Virus record (IMG/VR): IMGVR_UViG_3300026522_000557
Location: 1 to 7,288 of that record
From: a virus
Direction: 5' to 3' (one strand)
Length of the DNA stretch: 7,288 bases
Numbering within the stretch: the first letter of the stretch is position 1; every line of letters starts with the position of its first letter. The translations under genes and the position numbers were made by a program. Shown in pieces: positions 1-7,288 of this stretch. Under the pieces are notes generated by a model, which saw nothing but the letters and a program-made list of their open reading frames with translations, did not search any database and had not been told where the DNA came from.

Positions 1-3000
1 TTAGCATCTTCTTCTTCATAGAACTGGTTTAAGTTCTTTACTGCCTCGTCGTGAGATTTAGTATTCCCATTTTCAATAGCTTTAATTAAAGTTACATCTG
101 GAGCACAAACATATCCGAAAAAAGCAGAAAAATCATTCCCACCAACAGACCAACTGCTAAGACCGCTATTAAACCCTCCATTAGCTGCATATGCTTTTGT
201 CTGTACTTTTAATCGTCCGATTTCTTTAGGAGTATATCCTAAATTGATATAAGGGGTTTTCGTATTTATTGGCTCATATTGAATATCAGGACCTTGAGTG
301 GCAGAAATATCTAAATAGCTCCAATCTTTTCCTGCAAAAGTCTTTTGAGCTTCTGTATAAGTGCTATCTTTACTGCCTGCAATAGCTCCTTTATCTAGAG
401 CTTCTACATGATTAAACCATAATACTTTAGAAGGAAAATCTTGATTATCAGGATTATGCGGCTCTTCTTTAGTCTCATAAATAAAATCTAAATGTCCTTG
501 TTCAACAAGAGACTTAAAAGTATAGGTCGTATCTGGATTCTGAAGTTTTCCGCCCCAACAAATTACAGGTTTATATTTGTCAGTATAAGAATTAGGAATT
601 TCATCTACAATCTGAAAGCTAGAATCTTGTTCCCAATTTGAAATTTTTATATTCCAAACATCTGTAGCAATTAAATTATCTTCATCTACATCATCAGTAT
701 AATAACGAATTTCAATAGGCACTTCCGCCGCCTTATATATGACAAGATAAGAATCTTTAATATCTTCTGCTTTAGTAAGCATTTCGTCCTTCAGATACCA
801 TCCATAAGGTTCACCTACGGTATAAAAAGGAATTTGTTTTTTCTTTTGTTCATCATCGGGGTCAATTACTCCAGAATAAGGATACATATCATCTAAGTCG
901 ATAAATTTATCCACATAAACGCCATCGGCAAATTCTGTTTCATCAATTGTAACATCTTTTTCTCCGATATAAAAATATTTAGAAGTAAAAAATTCTTCTT
1001 TTTCTTCAGCCAAATAATATTGCTCTTTATAATATTTAACCTTAATTGTATAGGTCTTAGGATTTTCTACTTTTGTATAAATAATATCAAATGGCGCAGC
1101 AGCTAAAAGTCTTCTTAAGTTGACCCGCCCTGTCTTGTCATTATAGCTATAATTTGGTTTATATCCAGCAGGTTTATGTTTCTGGATATCAATAACCTGA
1201 CCAAAAGTAGGAACAGAAAGAAAATCAGTTTCTTTTAACTCAATATCTTCTGAAGCAATTAAATTAGCTTGATCATCTTTATTGTCTTTCCAATATTTAA
1301 CTGTGACATGGTAACCAACAATTTCATAACGGACATTGAATATAAAATTCTTAACACTATTGAATGTTACATCGCCTAAATCTGTTAAATTAACAATTTT
1401 ACCTGGGCCATAATATTCTGGTTGATAATAATCAACAAACAACTTATCATATGGTTTCCATTCATTTCCATTTACAAAATCACTCTCGCGGAAGTAAATA
1501 GTAGATGACTGGAAAAGAGTCTCACCTTGGTAATAGTTTACATAACAACATCCAATATTATGTTCTGGGTTAGTATCTTTAACATCTGGATCATCCATAA
1601 TATTAAAGCTCTTTTTACCTGTTGCGTCTTCAAAAAATGTTTGTGTGACTTTATCATATAAGCAGTTGCTAGGAGCAATTTTATCTCCAATTTTATCGTA
1701 AAATTGTACAGGAACATAATCACGAATAAGATTATTATCATAATAAATCTTACAACTTTTAATTCCTACACCTGCAATTCCACCGCGATAAAATCCATTC
1801 TGATCACAAGCAAATAAATACAGCGGAACGGTCATTTTAGCAGAATTACTTTGTACAAGCTGAGTATAGGTTAGTGTCGCATAGCTATAACCATCTCTTG
1901 TAGATGAACTAATTCCCGTATTCGCGCTAAATCCCTCTGAAGCAGATTCTTCAACAACCAGTTCTGGAGTTCCAAGACCCGCGGACACATTAAAAGTATT
2001 AACCCCAGTTAATTGCTTCTCATCTTTAAATTTGGTATTATTAACATACTTAATATAGTAAGCACCATCTTCAGTTACACTACCGAATAGATAAGCATCG
2101 CCAACATTAACATTGTAAAGAGGCTCTGTGTCAAATACTCTATAAGTATTAACTAATACCGTCAACTTACTCATATCATCGCAAGTCACACCTGTATTAA
2201 TATAAGCATGATTTAATGTCCAAGTAGGATAATCTTTTTCATAATTACCCATATCATTATGTTGTAAGAACAAAATTCTATGTGGATAATCAATGCCGCT
2301 AGGATCAACAGGCTCGCTCTGCGCTGTATAAACAATATTAATAGCATCAAGATTTCTTAAAGCAGAAAAATTTACAGGGCCAGTGTACTGGATCTCGCCA
2401 TTTCCACAATAAGAAGGTTTAAAAGCATTAATATCAAGTCCTAAATCTGTAAGAGTAGTATCAGTTGTAAAATCAAGAACTCTATACCTTAATTGATTGC
2501 TTCCAATCCAGTTCTCATTTGCGACTTCATCTGTGTAATATCTAACCTGCGTTGTATATGTTGAAGCCATATATAAAACAGAATACTCACCTTGAAGTTC
2601 ATCAAAAGTAAAACGAGAAGAAGCACTCACTCCATCAAGAAGTCCTTTATCATAATAATCAGGTCTATAAGCATTAAGATCAAATAAATCTGGAAGTGTA
2701 ACGCCTCCTCCAACCTGTGCTTCTTCTATTGTAATAATAGAAGTATTGATTGTAGAGAAAGTAGACGCCATTTCCTGTTTATATCTAATTACAATGCTTT
2801 TTGTCTTAATAGTTTCAACAGGCTTATATGCAATAGTAATAGGAGAATTGGCAAGTAAAGAACCTAATGTAATTGCTCCACTATAGGATTTACTTTCATC
2901 AAAAATAAATCCATCGGCGCGGGCGGCGTTCACATCAACAATGTCTGCGAGACTTGGATCATTTAAAAACATTGTCTCATTAATAGTTACATTTATTGTC

Positions 3001-4439
3001 TTTAGTTCTTTTCCTGTATCATCTACATATTTTACTGCAAGGGTATAATCTTTTGCTTTATAATAAACTTGAATAACCCCAACGTTTACTACATCATCAA
3101 AAGTAGAAAGATTTGCGTTATAGATACGGCCATCATCATAGGTTGCACTATGGTATTTATTTATATCTATACCAATATCAGTGATGATGTCTGTTGAATT
3201 TTCATATGCTGTATTATATTTAAACTTATAAGTGATCGTGGTGATACGATTCCAGTTTGGGTATTCTCCATAATAATATTCAACAAAAACAGAATTTTCT
3301 GTTAAAGGATATCTAACATTATATGAATCTTTTAAATCACCATAAGTAATAATTGCCGTCGAGTCAGCATCCGAAAGATAACCATCGGAATAATACTTCT
3401 TTGGCTTGTATCCATTAATGTTAATAAAATCTGCTAAAGTTGAATTTAAAACAATATCACTTTGTTTAATTACAATAGTAGAAGACTGAAAAACAACAAA
3501 TTGATTATCAGAAGTCTCTTGCTCATATGTAATAGTAATATTTTTACTCTCTTCATTTTGGATTTTTTCATAATAAACCTGTAGAAGGGTAGTATTTATA
3601 AAACTATCAAAAGTAAGATCGCCATAAAAATTCGTGACAGCTCTATAACCATTTGGTTTACCTGTCTTCAAATCAATAAGATCACCGATATTTCTTGCAT
3701 CATCTACTTTTTTCTTTGTAAAAGTAATGCTTACTGTCTGTACAGATTCAAGAGTTCCTTCATCTGTACGAATGAAATATTCTACATCTTTTGTATAAAC
3801 GATTGGCGCATAGTTAATAATTAATGTACCAACGCTTTTAAGCTCTTCATAAGTCAACATATGTCCAGTATAATTGGTTACTTGACCTGGCTTATAATAA
3901 ATTGGCTTATAAGCATCTACATTTATCCCTAATTGTTCAAAGCTAATTCCAGCATAAAAATCAGATGCTTTAATTATTTTTTCATTTGTCGCGAGTAAAT
4001 TGTTTCCATCTTGGTAATATAAAATTTTTAATTTAAAATAATCAGTTGCAACAGAATCAGTAGTATAAACCTCCGTTGCCCCTTTTGCATAATCGCTTTT
4101 TAGTCTAACAGTAAGAATGAAATTACCATTCTTTAATCTATTTTGAGTGGTTTTACCTTCTGTAGTTACGCTAAATAACAAATTAATGTCATCAAAAACA
4201 ATTTCTGCTTTTCGCAACATTGCGGTTAATCTGCTCATCACAAGAAAAGCATCTGTTTCATTTTTCTCAGTTACTAAGAACTTCAAAGTTATATCTTTAA
4301 ATTTATCTTGCTGACGAACAAATGTAGGTTGAATATCTCCTTCAAGCCAATCTGACGTTGTATCAACCATATTACTAGATAATATTCTGTCATATAATTG
4401 GACGCCCAAAGAAGATAAATCTATACCATTAATTAGCAT
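1..4439 (-). CDS. Giant tail/baseplate protein. Dit-like (distal tail protein) N-terminal domain followed by adhesin-like tandem repeats and lectin-like domains. 3' end lies beyond the window.
   Basis: ATG at 4439..4437, 8 nt downstream of GGAGG (4452..4448). I translated 1479 codons down to position 3 with no TAA, TAG or TGA; the remaining 2 nt show the ORF continues off the edge. A scan of all 'cta' triplets on the + strand in 1..4440 found none in this frame. The N-terminus MLINGIDLSSLGVQLYDR...KFKDITLKFLV...AEIVFDD resembles the siphophage Dit / Sipho_tail fold (by eye). It is absent from the ORF track, presumably because no stop lies in the window. Confidence 0.85.
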   Translation of the reverse strand, partial: MLINGIDLSSLGVQLYDRILSSNMVDTTSDWLEGDIQPTFVRQQDKFKDITLKFLVTEKNETDAFLVMSRLTAMLRKAEIVFDDINLLFSVTTEGKTTQNRLKNGNFILTVRLKSDYAKGATEVYTTDSVATDYFKLKILYYQDGNNLLATNEKIIKASDFYAGISFEQLGINVDAYKPIYYKPGQVTNYTGHMLTYEELKSVGTLIINYAPIVYTKDVEYFIRTDEGTLESVQTVSITFTKKKVDDARNIGDLIDLKTGKPNGYRAVTNFYGDLTFDSFINTTLLQVYYEKIQNEESKNITITYEQETSDNQFVVFQSSTIVIKQSDIVLNSTLADFININGYKPKKYYSDGYLSDADSTAIITYGDLKDSYNVRYPLTENSVFVEYYYGEYPNWNRITTITYKFKYNTAYENSTDIITDIGIDINKYHSATYDDGRIYNANLSTFDDVVNVGVIQVYYKAKDYTLAVKYVDDTGKELKTINVTINETMFLNDPSLADIVDVNAARADGFIFDESKSYSGAITLGSLLANSPITIAYKPVETIKTKSIVIRYKQEMASTFSTINTSIITIEEAQVGGGVTLPDLFDLNAYRPDYYDKGLLDGVSASSRFTFDELQGEYSVLYMASTYTTQVRYYTDEVANENWIGSNQLRYRVLDFTTDTTLTDLGLDINAFKPSYCGNGEIQYTGPVNFSALRNLDAINIVYTAQSEPVDPSGIDYPHRILFLQHNDMGNYEKDYPTWTLNHAYINTGVTCDDMSKLTVLVNTYRVFDTEPLYNVNVGDAYLFGSVTEDGAYYIKYVNNTKFKDEKQLTGVNTFNVSAGLGTPELVVEESASEGFSANTGISSSTRDGYSYATLTYTQLVQSNSAKMTVPLYLFACDQNGFYRGGIAGVGIKSCKIYYDNNLIRDYVPVQFYDKIGDKIAPSNCLYDKVTQTFFEDATGKKSFNIMDDPDVKDTNPEHNIGCCYVNYYQGETLFQSSTIYFRESDFVNGNEWKPYDKLFVDYYQPEYYGPGKIVNLTDLGDVTFNSVKNFIFNVRYEIVGYHVTVKYWKDNKDDQANLIASEDIELKETDFLSVPTFGQVIDIQKHKPAGYKPNYSYNDKTGRVNLRRLLAAAPFDIIYTKVENPKTYTIKVKYYKEQYYLAEEKEEFFTSKYFYIGEKDVTIDETEFADGVYVDKFIDLDDMYPYSGVIDPDDEQKKKQIPFYTVGEPYGWYLKDEMLTKAEDIKDSYLVIYKAAEVPIEIRYYTDDVDEDNLIATDVWNIKISNWEQDSSFQIVDEIPNSYTDKYKPVICWGGKLQNPDTTYTFKSLVEQGHLDFIYETKEEPHNPDNQDFPSKVLWFNHVEALDKGAIAGSKDSTYTEAQKTFAGKDWSYLDISATQGPDIQYEPINTKTPYINLGYTPKEIGRLKVQTKAYAANGGFNSGLSSWSVGGNDFSAFFGYVCAPDVTLIKAIENGNTKSHDEAVKNLNQFYEEEDA
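468..1589 (-). repeat. Second block of four more adhesin-like modules (aa 951-1324). One module is enlarged by an insertion.
   Basis: Same architecture as the first block. Openers: CCYVNYY, HVTVKYW, TIKVKYY, PIEIRYY. Centres: KHKPAGYKPNY, DKYKPVIC. Closers: IFNVRYE, FDIIYTK, YLVIYKA, LDFIYET. The following residues (nt 3..467; PSKVLWFNH...TPYINLGYTPKEIGRLKVQTKAY) look like the start of a second copy of the aa 708-950 domain type. Confidence 0.5.
1590..2318 (-). other. Non-repeat domain (aa 708-950) of the giant ORF, jelly-roll / lectin-like by eye
   Basis: This segment breaks the repeat periodicity. Motifs: PHRILFLQHNDMG...YINTGV...KLTVLVNTY...VPLYLFACDQNGFYRGGIAGVGIKSCKIYYDNNLIRDYVPV...CLYDKVTQTFFEDATGKKSF. 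These recall receptor-binding jelly-roll domains of phage fibres. The assignment is from memory only. Confidence 0.35.
2319..4043 (-). repeat. Seven degenerate tandem modules of about 80-86 aa (protein level, aa 133-707 of the giant ORF), MucBP/beta-grasp adhesin-like
   Basis: Each module opens with an alternating strand ending in aromatics: KLKILYY, DVEYFIR, NITITYE, VFVEYYY, TLAVKYV, SIVIRYK, TTQVRYY. Most carry a central D-I/L-x-x-N-x-Y/F-K/R-P-x-Y-Y motif, e.g. INVDAYKPIYY, ININGYKPKKYY, DLNAYRPDYY, DINAFKPSYC. Each closes with a (I/V)x(I/V)xY strand: LIINYAP, LLQVYYE, VIQVYYK, ITIAYKP, INIVYTA. The nucleotide sequences are diverged, so this is not a DNA repeat. Confidence 0.6.
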
Positions 4440-4443
4440 TCAT

Positions 4444-4650
4444 TTAACCTCCATTGCGTTGTACTCTTAATCCGATTTGATTCATCAAATCGTCCATATC
4501 ATCATCTGATGCAGATGTTGCGGTGGGAGAATTAAGAGCATTATCATAAATAGAATAATCATTTCCTCTATCAGAGATAGAACTCCCAATAGCCGTAATA
4601 AGCGTATCTTGGATTGTGCCTTGTAACGCTGATATATCTGTCATTTCCAT
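4444..4650 (-). CDS. 68-aa acidic hypothetical protein, sitting where a tape measure gene would be expected
   Basis: Intact ORF in the track. ATG at 4650 lies 7 nt after AAGGAG (4663..4658). TAA stop at 4446..4444 sits 4 nt before the start of the giant ORF. No in-frame TAG. No recognisable family. Confidence 0.7.
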   Translation of the reverse strand: MEMTDISALQGTIQDTLITAIGSSISDRGNDYSIYDNALNSPTATSASDDDMDDLMNQIGLRVQRNGG

Positions 4651-4661
4651 TTACTATCTCC

Positions 4662-4946
4662 TTATATATCAAGGGCAGAGAAAGTAGATAATCTTTCTTG
4701 TCTAGATGCTTCTGAATATTCAGAATTATCATTAAAAAATAATAAATCAGAATTATTACTTCTTGCTCTTCTTAATGCTGCAATTGTGCAATTTGTTTCT
4801 AACTCTTGCTTTTCAATAAAACCTTTATAAGCTATTTCAATTTCTTTTGGAGTCAAATAATAAAAATCTTTAGGAGAAATTCTTATCTCTCCAACAGCAA
4901 TACCAAACAGTTTTTCCTATTCTTGCTTTATATCAATCTGCTTCAT
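4662..4946 (-). CDS. Tail assembly chaperone-like protein (GTA g10/g10.1-like motif) with one in-frame TAG. The 5' end is uncertain.
   Basis: The track ORF 4662..4856 begins at a TTG, but the frame stays open upstream through a single TAG (4919..4917) as far as 5036: ...FMKQIDIKQE*EKLFGIAVGEIRISPKDFYYLTPKEIEIAYKGF... The motif 'L-x-I/L-S-P-x-D/E-F-W/Y-x-L-T-P-x-E-I/L' is what I recall from small GTA/HK97-type tail chaperone proteins. The first in-frame ATG is at 4946 and has only a weak SD. TAA stop at 4664..4662. Confidence 0.5.
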
Positions 4947-5035
4947 AAATTGAAGCACATCTTCAACAGTATGGATATCTTTGGTTTTATCTATATTAAA
5001 AGCATCTTTGAAACAATCTATAAATAAATTTTCAA

Positions 5036-5073
5036 GCTAAAAAGAAGAGAGCGGCTAGAGGTCAACCGCTCTC
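5036..5073 (-). terminator. Rho-independent terminator downstream of the major tail protein gene
   Basis: Perfect 8-bp stem: GAGAGCGG (5047..5054) pairs with CCGCTCTC (5066..5073), with an 11-nt loop. On the minus strand the stem is followed by TTCTTTTT (reverse complement of 5039..5046). It lies about 110 nt after the major tail protein TAA stop. Confidence 0.6.
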
Positions 5074-5184
5074 ACATTTAAACTAGAGAATAAAAGGAGT
5101 TCTGTTTCAATTCCTCTGTCTATTTTTGAAAAATTCTTTAGTGCAATTATGCTTTTTAGTCCTAATCGAAAACAGAATAATTTA

Positions 5185-5592
5185 TTATGAATCTTCCGTA
5201 CTATCATTCAATTTTCCAACTCCACTAAACATAATTCGATATGAATAAGTATCATTATAAACAGTAGAAAGTGGGAAAGAAGTAATAATAGCTTTTCCTT
5301 CATAACCTTTATTTGAATCAGTAATCTTTAAATTAACTGATTTACCATTATTAAATGCTTCTTCTAATGCAGCAAAAGCAGTATCATCTTTAATAAACAT
5401 CCCATTACAAAGAAGACTCCAACTGCGAACGCCGCTTATTTGTTCCTTCCACTCTCCATTAATTTTATTGGTAATATCTATCGGCGACATAGAACGGGAT
5501 AGAGAAGCGTTCTGCTGTCCCCCTAAAATATTATCACCAATAGAAACTACCACGTCTACACCTTTATGAGGAGGTTGAACTATTCTGCTCAT
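5185..5592 (-). CDS. Major tail (tube) protein, TP901-1 / Phage_tail_2-like family
   Basis: Intact 135-aa ORF. Pattern VVVSIGDNILGGQQNASLSRSMSPIDITNK..GEWKEQISGVRSWSLLCNG......Y.GKAIITSFPLS resembles the TP901-1/GTA-g9 type tube protein (by eye). AGGAGG at 5612..5607 is upstream of the ATG at 5592, with a long 14-nt spacer. TAA stop. No TAG. Confidence 0.8.
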   Translation of the reverse strand: MSRIVQPPHKGVDVVVSIGDNILGGQQNASLSRSMSPIDITNKINGEWKEQISGVRSWSLLCNGMFIKDDTAFAALEEAFNNGKSVNLKITDSNKGYEGKAIITSFPLSTVYNDTYSYRIMFSGVGKLNDSTEDS

Positions 5593-5986
5593 TTATTTCT
5601 TTTACACCTCCTGCACTTTTTATTGTGTATGAAATTATTCCGTGTTTCATTACCACGCCCGTGGATTTATCATCTAATATCTTGCAATCTGATTCTCGAA
5701 TATAAGTAACCCCAGGAATATCATAGAGTTCTTTTAAATGCTATGCAATAGACTCTTCAATTTCTAGGATCTCTTTTTCCCCTTCATAAGTAGAAAAAAT
5801 ATCTAATTTATATCTGATTGTATATAAGAAATTATTTTGAAAATAATCTCTTTGTAAATTAGATAAAGTTAGTTTTAAAAAAGGAAAGGTGTCTGTTTCT
5901 TCCCCCTACGCTCTATCCGTAATATTATATCCAAGAGAAGAGATTATTTGATAAAGTTTTGTCTTTATATATAATACTAGCGGCAT
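5564..5986 (-). CDS. Tail terminator / tail completion-like protein (DUF3168-like position and size), 140 codons with two in-frame TAGs
   Basis: ATG at 5986 lies 6 nt after AAGGAG (5998..5993). I checked the frame codon by codon down to TAA at 5566..5564. The only interruptions are TAG at 5908..5906 and 5743..5741. Sequence: MPLVLYIKTKLYQIISSLGYNITDRA*GEETDTFPFLKLTL...EIEESIA*HLKELYDIPGVTYIRESD...KSAGGVKEINEQNSSTSS. The gene overlaps the major tail protein start by 29 nt. The family call rests mainly on synteny (between gp10-like and major tail protein). Confidence 0.6.
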
Positions 5987-5997
5987 TATCTTCTCCT

Positions 5998-6180
5998 TTA
6001 TGTTATTTGTATATATTCATCAAATCCCATACTACCCATATTATCATTAGACTGACTTCCAAGATCACCAATTTCATTTAAAGACTTGAAAAAACCCTAA
6101 ATAATGCCCACAAGGGCGGCAGCTAATAAAGAGGAAAACAGTTCACCTGTCCAAATACCTCCGCCACCGCCACCGTCCAT
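5998..6180 (-). CDS. Small Gly-rich hydrophobic protein (60 aa) with one in-frame TAG. Alternatively the read-through tail of the gp10-like gene.
   Basis: ATG at 6180 lies 5 nt after GGAGG (6190..6186). Sequence: MDGGGGGGIWTGELFSSLLAAALVGII*GFFKSLNEIGDLGSQSNDNMGSMGFDEYIQIT, ending at TAA 6000..5998. TAG at 6099..6097. It is in the same frame as the upstream gp10-like ORF, so it is only a separate gene if the TAG at 6210..6208 terminates. Confidence 0.4.
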
Positions 6181-6207
6181 AGCTCCCTCCCCTTGTATAG
6201 AGCCAAT

Positions 6208-6639
6208 CTATTCTGCTAATTCTTGCTGCGCTTCATCGACGGCCTCTTCAAATTCTGCTTGTGTAGAGGCCCAAGCTTGTTCTAAAGCGGGACGAAAATA
6301 AGGCTGCGCCTCCATCTTATAAGTTCCATATTCTACGTATTGTGCATAATCTGCATCTACTCCTGCAGTGATACTAGAATCGTCTGATTCACGCCAAATT
6401 GTAGATTGTAAAAAACCCGTTCTAACGGGGACCATCTCCGTTGCAATATCATAAAATGTATTTGCAAAATCAGCAAAAGCCTAACTATAATCCACATCAA
6501 CAGTTACTGTAACAGGGTCGTCATTTCCTAGATAATTATTAACGCCATTTCCATCTGAATCAACAGGTTCTAGCGCTGTCCCGCTAACCGTTCTTTTAAG
6601 GCCAAGGTCATCAATAGTAATAGTCGCCTCAAGTCCCAT
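6208..6639 (-). CDS. HK97 gp10-family head-tail joining protein with one internal in-frame TAG
   Basis: The track fragment 6208..6435 carries the family signature PVRTGFLQSTI...ADYAQYVEYGT..MEAQPYFRPA. The frame stays open upstream through TAG 6483..6481 to ATG 6639, which lies 6 nt after AAGGAG (6651..6646). That gives 143 aa, a typical size for the family. The ORF ends at a TAG (6210..6208), the only non-TAA gene end in the window. Confidence 0.8.
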
Positions 6640-6642
6640 AAC

Positions 6643-6831
6643 TTACTCCTTGATATCTTTAATATCTACTTCTTTATAATTTTCGGGTTTATCGAAACGC
6701 CCCATCTTCAACTGAGTAGAGTAGAGATGTTTCTCAATAACCTAATGATCTTCATTTAAAACATAGTGAGGCTCTGCAAAATCCAGAACTTTACCTGTTG
6801 ACGAATAAATAAATCTACCATCAATTCTCAT
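6643..6831 (-). CDS. 62-aa hypothetical head-tail module protein with one in-frame TAG
   Basis: ATG at 6831 lies 6 nt after AAGGAGG (6844..6838). Sequence: MRIDGRFIYSSTGKVLDFAEPHYVLNEDH*VIEKHLYSTQLKMGRFDKPENYKEVDIKDIKE, ending at TAA 6645..6643. TAG at 6744..6742. Tightly packed, 3 nt before the gp10-like start. Confidence 0.55.
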
Positions 6832-6842
6832 ATTAAACCTCC

Positions 6843-7288
6843 TTACTTAGTATAAACTACTGTCCAATACCCTATTCCAGTATAATTTATATAACGCCCA
6901 CTTCCTAAATATATTTTTGAATCTGCTGGTTCAACTAATATCCAACAAAAAGAATACTAATCTGGTATTATTTTATTATTCCCAAAGCCAGAAACCCAAG
7001 GAACAGAAAAAATTCTTCCCTCATTATAAGCCGTTACTATTTTTGCTTGTGTTACAGGTGAATTCATACCCTTATATGAACTTGGTAAAGCAATACCTTG
7101 ATCTTTTAAAGAAACTGGCTTACCAACGCTATCTTTGTATAAACCACAAGCAGCCCTGTCTCCAGACTGATACGTCCCTGTAGGGAAAAATACATCTTTT
7201 AAATTTTCAATAGAAAAATCTGAAGGAAGACTAACATAAGTCTGTTTGGTACAAAGATAATTCCAAGTTTCTAAAGTTCCCCCGCCAC
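6843..7288 (-). CDS. C-terminal 147 codons of a structural protein (5' end outside the window) with one in-frame TAG
   Basis: The frame is open from the right edge: GGGTLETWNYLCTKQTYVSLPSDF...GRIFSVPWVSGFGNNKIIPD*YSFCWILVEPADSKIYLGSGRYINYTGIGYWTVVYTK, ending at TAA 6845..6843. That stop is embedded in the next gene's SD. TAG at 6959..6957. Function not recognisable. Confidence 0.6.

Follow-up and report, generated by a model that had tools for sequence, protein, structure and literature searches.

The stretch of DNA analysed here (hereafter, the window) comprises positions 1 to 7,288 of the IMG/VR virus record IMGVR_UViG_3300026522_000557 and covers the neck and tail genes of a siphovirus-like phage with a small genome (~24-26 kb); five of these structural genes carry in-frame amber (TAG) codons. 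These codons are almost certainly translated as some amino acid in the window genes and, to judge from the residues found at the same positions in related phages, the amino acid in the window lineage is probably glutamate. TAG recoding as such is well established, also for phages of comparable size and habitat; what is new is the evidence for TAG as glutamate in part of one phage family, probably including the window lineage, together with the finding of no phage-encoded decoder in the sequences searched. With somewhat less assurance than for glutamate taken by itself, we lean towards a joint explanation in which TAG is a sense codon, stands for glutamate, is decoded by a factor supplied in trans and would act as a brake on late genes.

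TAG codons in the neck and tail genes are almost certainly translated

The window corresponds, in reverse complement, to an end of ERZ27252042:k141_278499 (24,147 bp), a metagenome contig in ENA. Locus L001 consists of 12.1 kb of this contig, and the results given below for the window's own contig cover these 12.1 kb. Searches with the tail terminator, the giant protein and Tal, together with scans of IMG/VR and of JGI metagenomes, brought the collection to 92 loci (L001-L092).

The original prediction, made from the letters of the window, had listed seven TAGs in six structural genes (first positions 4917, 5741, 5906, 6097, 6481, 6742 and 6957), and all seven are present in frame on the minus strand. 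The full inventory comprises ten TAGs, distributed over five genes (A, B, CD, E and G; Table 1), those at 6208, 5055 and 5037 having been overlooked. Genes C and D, which had been counted separately, form one frame in which TAG 6208-6210 is no gene end: the protein collection calls a single 213-amino-acid (aa) product, and the standard-code relative L010 has an unbroken 219-aa CD homolog with CAA at the column of TAG 6208. The module genes contain, as originally described, no in-frame TAA or TGA and no frameshift, and all eight genes of the window end in TAA, as had been stated for every unambiguous gene end. The description of the initiation signals held for the AAGGAGG-like Shine-Dalgarno (SD) sequences and for the short gaps or overlaps between genes, and failed for the chaperone-like gene, which had been thought to lack a proper start. 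This start was not found because it lies upstream, at ATG 5207, where gene G overlaps gene F. The N-terminus of gene G (MIVRKIHNKLFCFRLGLKSIIALKNF) matches that of the standard-code L010 (MKLIKAGNKIYQLKFGLKALMALEEI) and is kept in other relatives too. We also considered 5037-5185 as a non-coding intergenic stretch with a terminator, and rejected it because the encoded N-terminus of gene G is conserved in standard-code relatives.

The effect of the code on gene calling was large. Minus-strand open reading frame (ORF) coverage of positions 4444-7288 was 0.48 under table 11, so that standard-code annotation indeed shreds the module, and it was 0.99 with TAG as sense, whereas TGA or TAA as sense gave only 0.58 and 0.67, respectively. 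For the whole of L001, coverage rose from 0.876 under table 11 to 0.995 with TAG as sense. The gene caller of the protein collection already reads through the window TAGs and gives gene G, too, as one product of 181 aa.

Homology extends across the TAG codons, in agreement with the original observation that conserved motifs continue on both sides; alignments or profiles span every one of them. For gene A, an exhaustive search gave four representative homologs with 57-67% identity that align on both sides of the TAG (KIIPDxYSFCW versus KTIPDNSSFIW or KRIPDDVSFIW), the residues aligned to the TAG being N, D, N and D. In gene E the phrog_176 match spans both TAGs, and eleven homologs align across both. 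Alignments of relatives also cross the TAG positions of CD, B and G, and TAG 6742 of gene B is common to L002 and L006. The ratio of nonsynonymous to synonymous rates (dN/dS), computed against the L006-8 lineage (~70% identical), was 0.02 for gene B (0.035 downstream of the TAG), 0.11 for gene CD (0.10 downstream of the first TAG) and 0.14 for gene E (0.10 downstream of the first TAG). Purifying selection thus persists past the TAGs, so the genes are not pseudogenes.

The same TAGs occur in four further independent assemblies, L002-L005, which come from other samples and other assemblers. L002, a 97-98% identical relative, reaches upstream into the head genes and has in-frame TAGs in TerL (four), the portal gene (one), the MuF-like gene (five), an HNH endonuclease gene and others. 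Of its complete called genes, 13 terminate at TAA and 5 at TGA, with TAG used by none. Ribosomes would read through all ten TAGs of the window to give full-length proteins, with termination at TAA only in the window lineage genome and at TAA or TGA in L002.

Nonsense mutations in a decaying prophage, or errors of sequencing or assembly, either of which would leave the module without full-length expression, are an extremely improbable explanation of these codons. The shredding under table 11 is its one general point, and no result positively favours it. As had been argued at the outset, random decay would not give TAG alone: 25% of the off-frame stop triplets of the region are TAG, whereas ten of the ten internal stops are (p ~9e-7). 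The low dN/dS values (0.02-0.14, low also downstream of the TAGs), the recurrence of the same TAGs in five assemblies from different samples and assemblers, the same pattern in the terminase and portal genes of dozens of related 23-27 kb genomes and the absence of any gene ending in TAG speak against it as well. A single TAG fits decay or error better and may be a real defect or an error: column 109 of the CD homolog of L002 (9426-9989) is TAG in L002 alone, where relatives have the conserved Tyr or Trp (TAT in L001 and L003). This copy differs from that of L001 at 39 codons and by a 26-codon gap, which may reflect a local rearrangement, an error or a real defect. Because homology, selection, shared TAGs and the head genes of L002 concur, decay and sequencing error are virtually ruled out; all four, together with stop usage, agree with the central claim of the original prediction that TAG is read as sense in the structural module.

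Aligned residues favour glutamate

For each TAG column, the codon in the closest relative without TAG at that column was recorded, and out-of-clade residues were scored with BLOSUM62 conditional probabilities (Table 2). The method discriminates, as it returns Gln for one TAG clade and Trp for the TGA clade used as control. Members of the Glu clade are L019, L020, L022, L061, L076, L011, L017 and others (IMG/VR and JGI loci), and those of the Gln clade are L027, L029, L030, L033, L034, L052 and others. In a rough clade tree, built on average identities by the unweighted pair group method with arithmetic mean, the window lineage clusters with the Glu-type and TGA-type clades.

Table 2. Residues and codons at recoded columns in three clades. 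Swaps were counted between genomes at least 85% identical; LL, log-likelihood.
Clade	Columns	LL or residue	Codon swaps	Conserved columns
Gln clade	197	LL(Q) -519.6, LL(E) -543.9	CAG 23, CAA 10; GAG 1	Q 16, E 9
Glu clade	135	LL(E) -325.7, LL(Q) -357.5	GAA 13, GAG 10; CAA 2, CAG 2	E 23, Q 2
TGA clade (control)	18	Trp	TGG 1	W 7, F 1

These counts clearly indicate that the neighbouring clade uses TAG as glutamate. Within it, TAG stands in L019, L020 and L022, which derive from three metagenomes, where TerL otherwise has the first residue of its invariant Walker B 'EE' (CWI*EAY versus CWIEEAY or AWLEEAT, the asterisk marking TAG). In ATPases of the ASCE class, Gln at the first Walker B Glu should abolish activity.

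The head genes of L002 provide the corresponding evidence closest to the window. All five TAGs of its TerL and portal genes fall on columns with Glu in relatives, and two of these columns, in TerL ('PRSIV*L') and at portal column 104, are invariant, with E in 24 of 24 relatives. At the TerL 'GSIM*G' column, the residue in standard-code relatives depends on the TerL type, E in the type of L002 and Q in the other, and TAG is found in both backgrounds. In the window itself, TAGs 6481, 5037, 5741 and 6957 align with E/D, E/D, N/D and N/D, respectively. TAG 5037 of gene G is GAA in L006-8 and its column holds E in 15 cases and D in 5 across the family, and TAG 5741 of gene E is common to L001-8, other loci having N or D. 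The log-likelihoods of the window clade taken by itself were -86.5 for Glu and -90.6 for Gln.

Pyrrolysine at TAG was considered and rejected, as Lys is not enriched at TAG columns. The Q that stands at the TAG positions of the database proteins P0001 and P0002 was likewise rejected as evidence for Gln, because the DNA has TAG and the Q is supplied by the translation table of the gene caller; protein-level alignments from the public collection are biased toward Gln and unusable for code inference. Codon-usage compensation (depletion of GAG versus CAG) gave counts too small to decide between Glu and Gln. In the searchable literature, no report of TAG as glutamate was found for any phage or bacterium.

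No decoder was found in the phage genomes

The tRNA-Thr of L052 was the sole tRNA that ARAGORN detected in the window and L001-L092, and Rfam, at gathering and relaxed thresholds, gave no tRNA-like or other RNA family. Two TAG-coded contigs were covered end to end, one of 24,409 bp (L022 and L058) and one of 23,076 bp (L011 and L067), and neither contained a tRNA. The TGA-coded sister lineages likewise yielded no tRNA gene. Neither the 12.1 kb of the window's own contig nor the completely covered relatives thus yielded the suppressor tRNA or release-factor gene that the original prediction led one to expect. In L022, TAG occurs in almost every gene, including small putative regulators and TerS, and this leaves no early block in the standard code from which a code-switching factor might be produced beforehand.

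Since neither a decoder nor such an early block was seen, we suggest that the decoder, presumably a tRNA with a CUA anticodon, would most likely be supplied in trans by the host cell or by a co-resident element. This source might provide a Glu-type or a Gln-type amber suppressor; in Firmicutes the same non-discriminating glutamyl-tRNA synthetase (GluRS) could charge both, and the difference would lie in amidation by GatCAB.

TAG is rare in abundant and very long proteins

The frequency of TAG in TAG-coded family members differed strongly between genes. Per 1000 codons it was 0.7 in the major capsid protein gene, 2.4 in the scaffold gene and 3.9 in the N-terminal part of the giant gene, against 18.7 in TerL, 22 in the MuF-like gene and 27 in the chaperone-like gene. 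TAG is thus enriched in low-copy proteins (terminase, MuF-like, chaperone, neck) and near-absent in capsid and scaffold. In the window lineage the major tail protein gene and the giant gene are also nearly TAG-free; in the window genome the giant gene has no TAG in 3079 codons, whereas the small genes have 10 in 953 (Fisher p = 2e-6 relative to Glu and Gln codons). This pattern is consistent with TAG being costly where a protein is abundant or very long. If decoded less efficiently, TAG would act as a brake or stoichiometry setter on late genes.

Two local features lie next to TAG codons. The hairpin within gene G (Table 1) lies ~110 nt past the stop of the major tail gene; TAG 5055 lies in its 3′ arm and TAG 5037 follows directly after its T-run. 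Five terminator-like sites were found compared with 1.4 expected from shuffles, and that of gene G is the strongest. The corresponding position of L006 (about 1760-1810) carries a longer, 19-bp hairpin; its sequence differs, TAG TAG comes after it, and it seems that the structure rather than the sequence is conserved between the two lineages. In gene CD, at 6180-6210, an SD-like GGGGAGGGAG and an in-frame ATG at 6180 come directly after TAG 6208. A short form of CD that stops at TAG 6208, a long read-through form or a separately started C-terminal peptide is conceivable.

Weighing of alternative meanings

Several points weigh against glutamate and against a decoder supplied in trans. Every recent TAG polymorphism in the window lineage is with CAG (E27, E134 and CD207), as TAG = Gln predicts, and under TAG = Glu these swaps must be Q-to-E replacements, which are plausible but unproven. 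TAG 6208 (CD column 170) is CAG in L006-8 and CAA in L010 and L009. The likelihood margin of the window clade is small, about 2-4 nats. The TerL of L002 is 65-73% identical to the Glu clade and to standard-code relatives alike and no closer to the former, because of which the code of the window lineage may have arisen separately from that of the Glu clade. A suppressor tRNA may also lie in the other ~12 kb of the window's own contig, and non-canonical tRNAs can escape ARAGORN and Rfam. With regard to the CAG swaps, L001 and L002 show nonsynonymous differences at about the same per-site frequency as synonymous ones, and ordinary Q/E replacements occur; the swaps could be among them.

Glutamate competes with glutamine, the reading under a standard 'code 15'; the window phage would then translate TAG as crAss-like phages, Lak phages and most other TAG-recoded gut phages do. 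We judge glutamine in the window lineage to be rather unlikely, even though the lineage swaps just mentioned, all of them C/T transitions, would follow from it directly, TAG 6208 stands on a family-wide Gln column, and TAG 5906 of gene E is CAG in L002-5 and CAA in L006-8. A large sister clade moreover does read TAG as Gln, with 33 CAG/CAA swaps versus 1 GAG and LL(Q) ahead by 24 nats, and TAG to Gln is the only reassignment of this codon that has been reported for phages (Borges et al.; PMC9523058). Yet glutamine would then have to occupy the two invariant and the three further Glu columns of TerL and portal in a 97-98% identical relative, the BLOSUM likelihood of the window clade favours Glu, and the Q of P0001 and P0002 comes from the gene caller's translation table only. 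The phrase 'TAG to Gln, table 15' in the original prediction was an analogy; the deeper columns do not favour Gln, and the recent TAG/CAG polymorphisms alone point to it. Quite unlikely, in our view, is a mixed or other meaning of TAG, and the same holds for ambiguous or leaky decoding, in which TAG would be read partly as Glu and partly as Gln, or inefficiently by near-cognate tRNAs of the host, leaving truncated proteins beside full-length ones. A possible route to this state is a Gln-type suppressor charged with Glu by the non-discriminating GluRS and partly amidated. The mixed signals of the window lineage (Glu on deep columns, Gln in recent swaps), the failure to find a dedicated tRNA, the depletion of TAG in high-copy and very long genes and the conceivable short and long CD forms after TAG 6208, with their SD-like GGGGAGGGAG and ATG, would all suit it. 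On the other hand, the neighbouring clades are clean and opposite (23:4 for Glu and 33:1 for Gln), and inefficient read-through could not yield the products of genes with 3-12 TAGs, such as the TerL of L022 with 11. Near-cognate tRNAs, furthermore, are known to insert Gln, Tyr or Lys, and not Glu, at UAG.

Gene layout of the window

The window has a GC content of 32.9%, and every gene lies on the minus strand (Table 1). The order of the module is connector or neck genes, tail terminator, major tail protein, chaperone-like gene and giant tail gene. Gene CD matches Pfam PF04883 and phrog_5 in family searches, and its C-terminal extension is Gly-rich and hydrophobic. Gene F matches Pfam Phage_tail_2 (2.5e-17) and phrog_1407 (1e-29), and the nearest GenBank phages by this major tail protein, with identity of at most 41%, infect Firmicutes. 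The matches of gene G are weak (Phage_TAC_6, E 0.053; phrog_16333, E 0.0015). Genes A, B and H and the D segment of CD gave no significant Pfam or PHROGs match.

Table 1. Features of the window, listed from high to low positions.
Feature	Position	Strand	Length	In-frame TAG	Description
Gene A	6843..7286	-	147 codons	6957-6959	3′ part of structural gene, cut by contig end; TAA end; no function assigned
Gene B	6643..6831	-	62 aa	6742-6744	no function assigned; AAGGAGG Shine-Dalgarno; TAA stop
Gene CD	5998..6639	-	213 aa	6481-6483, 6208-6210, 6097-6099	HK97 gp10-like / Neck1 tail-completion protein
Gene E	5564..5986	-	140 aa	5906-5908, 5741-5743	tail terminator; phrog_176 over residues 7-123
Gene F	5185..5592	-	135 aa	none	major tail (tube) protein
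Gene G	4662..5207	-	181 aa	5055-5057, 5037-5039, 4917-4919	tail-assembly-chaperone-like; ATG 5207; overlaps end of gene F
Terminator-like hairpin	5037..5073 (stem 5073-5047, then T-run)	-	11-bp stem		stem followed by TTCTTTTT; inside gene G
Gene H	4444..4650	-	68 aa	none	acidic; between chaperone-like gene G and giant gene
Giant gene	1..4439	-	first 1479 codons of 3078-aa gene	none	tape-measure position; no in-frame stop

The giant gene is complete in L001 (2850-12086), where it lies between the chaperone-like genes and a 119-aa Dit-like gene and takes up about one third of the ~25-kb genome. Between L001 and L002 it differs by 83 nonsynonymous and 29 synonymous changes. Its product looks beta-rich and repetitive, not helical and tape-measure-like, and has no significant Pfam or PHROG match, the C-terminal half giving a marginal match to phrog_18955 (E about 1e-3); among the matches listed, the best homolog has 61% identity over 91% of the query and another 59% over 98%.

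The region around gene A appears to be mosaic, since in L002 the same place upstream of the neck genes is taken by an unrelated 510-aa collagen-repeat gene (7485-9017). L002 also has an HNH/NUMOD4 endonuclease gene (4241-4990) between the MuF-like and scaffold genes.

The phage family and its codes

The family is large, with contigs of 23-27 kb from many assemblers, several of them from the sheep rumen data set AUXO01 (PMC4158751). Contigs of close relatives of the window lineage measure 24,101 and 24,218 bp. By ORF coverage, TAG is sense in 53 of the 92 loci and TGA in 5, and 34 use the standard code; on closer inspection L015, L051 and L066 are TGA-coded as well. In the TGA lineages (L009, a whole 23,334-bp contig, and L015, L051, L057, L060, L062 and L080), in-frame TGA falls on conserved Trp and TAG is a real stop. 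L010, L032, L063 and other members use the standard code.

On the 52,010-bp contig L012 (ENA ERZ27256908:k141_100508) the tail genes are followed by a few small genes and then by TerS, TerL and portal; a circular or concatemeric family genome of ~26 kb is suggested. Judging from L012, L009 and L022, family genomes appear to measure ~24-26 kb and to have all genes on one strand. Besides structural genes they encode only a few small helix-turn-helix proteins, an endonuclease of the HNH or GIY-YIG type and a protein of 142-246 aa with weak similarity to replication initiators, DnaD or ScpB. These genomes show no polymerase and no recognisable lysis genes, and in many members no integrase was seen. 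Some members have a tyrosine integrase gene directly after the tail genes, among them the TAG-coded L052 and the standard-code L032; that of L052 contains no TAG and adjoins tRNA-Thr(CGT). In the window lineage and the Glu clade, none was seen within the parts covered.

A scan of IMG/VR with the major tail protein found no close relative of the window lineage, and scans of GTDB species genomes with the tail-terminator and Tal alignments gave no match. The two GTDB scans thus gave neither a prophage copy nor a host assignment.

Discussion

The window alone is one more example of TAG recoding, and it is the identity of the amino acid that would matter. On balance, and with more reserve than for the joint explanation above, we picture the window lineage as small rumen siphoviruses in which TAG means glutamate, standing beside sister clades with TAG = Gln, TGA = Trp and the standard code, having no suppressor tRNA of their own and receiving the meaning of the codon from outside the phage genome. 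Every recoded TAG is rendered as Gln by annotation software, the pipeline of the protein collection among them; should a clade in fact read TAG as Glu, its proteins are mistranslated in the databases at catalytic positions such as the Walker B motif of the terminase. With its four codes and without its own tRNA, a single family of this kind would offer a compact setting in which to study how a phage code is imposed in trans, and how fast the meaning of a reassigned stop codon can change. A Glu-inserting suppressor in Firmicutes, if it exists, would also be of interest to genetic-code engineers.

Stop-codon-recoded phages in which TAG is translated as Gln under translation table 15 were reportedly described by Ivanova and co-workers in 2014. 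The window resembles the alternatively coded gut phages in its TAGs within structural genes, low GC content, preference for TAA, large gain of coding density when TAG is sense, close relatives with the standard code or TGA = Trp, and animal-gut (rumen) habitat. It differs from them in that the aligned residues favour Glu in the window lineage, and clearly do so in the neighbouring clade, and in that complete relatives carry TAG in nearly all their genes, small putative regulators not excepted. In the article by Peters et al. (PMC9523058), stop-codon-recoded gut phages have TAG reassigned to Gln, again under table 15. Borges et al. (bioRxiv 10.1101/2021.08.26.457843) found only Gln and Trp reassignments where the phage code differs from that of the host, and detected suppressor tRNAs in only ~40% of TAG-recoded phage genomes. 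The same authors described the Topaz clade of small Firmicutes phages (22 +/- 3 kb) with TAG, TGA or standard codes, some of them integrated next to tRNA-Thr in Oscillospiraceae. The present family is similar to Topaz as described in its size of 23-27 kb, in its mixture of codes 11, 15-like and 4, in its Firmicutes-phage-like structural genes and in the TAG-free tyrosine integrase beside tRNA-Thr in L052. In the window lineage and in the Glu clade, on the other hand, the parts covered revealed no integrase.

The only catalogued code with TAG as glutamate is, to our knowledge, the nuclear code of peritrich ciliates (NCBI table 30), in which TAA and TAG are both assigned to Glu. Unlike that eukaryotic nuclear code with its reassigned TAA, the phage lineage studied here uses TAA as its main terminator, and has bacterial SD sites and homologs in phages.

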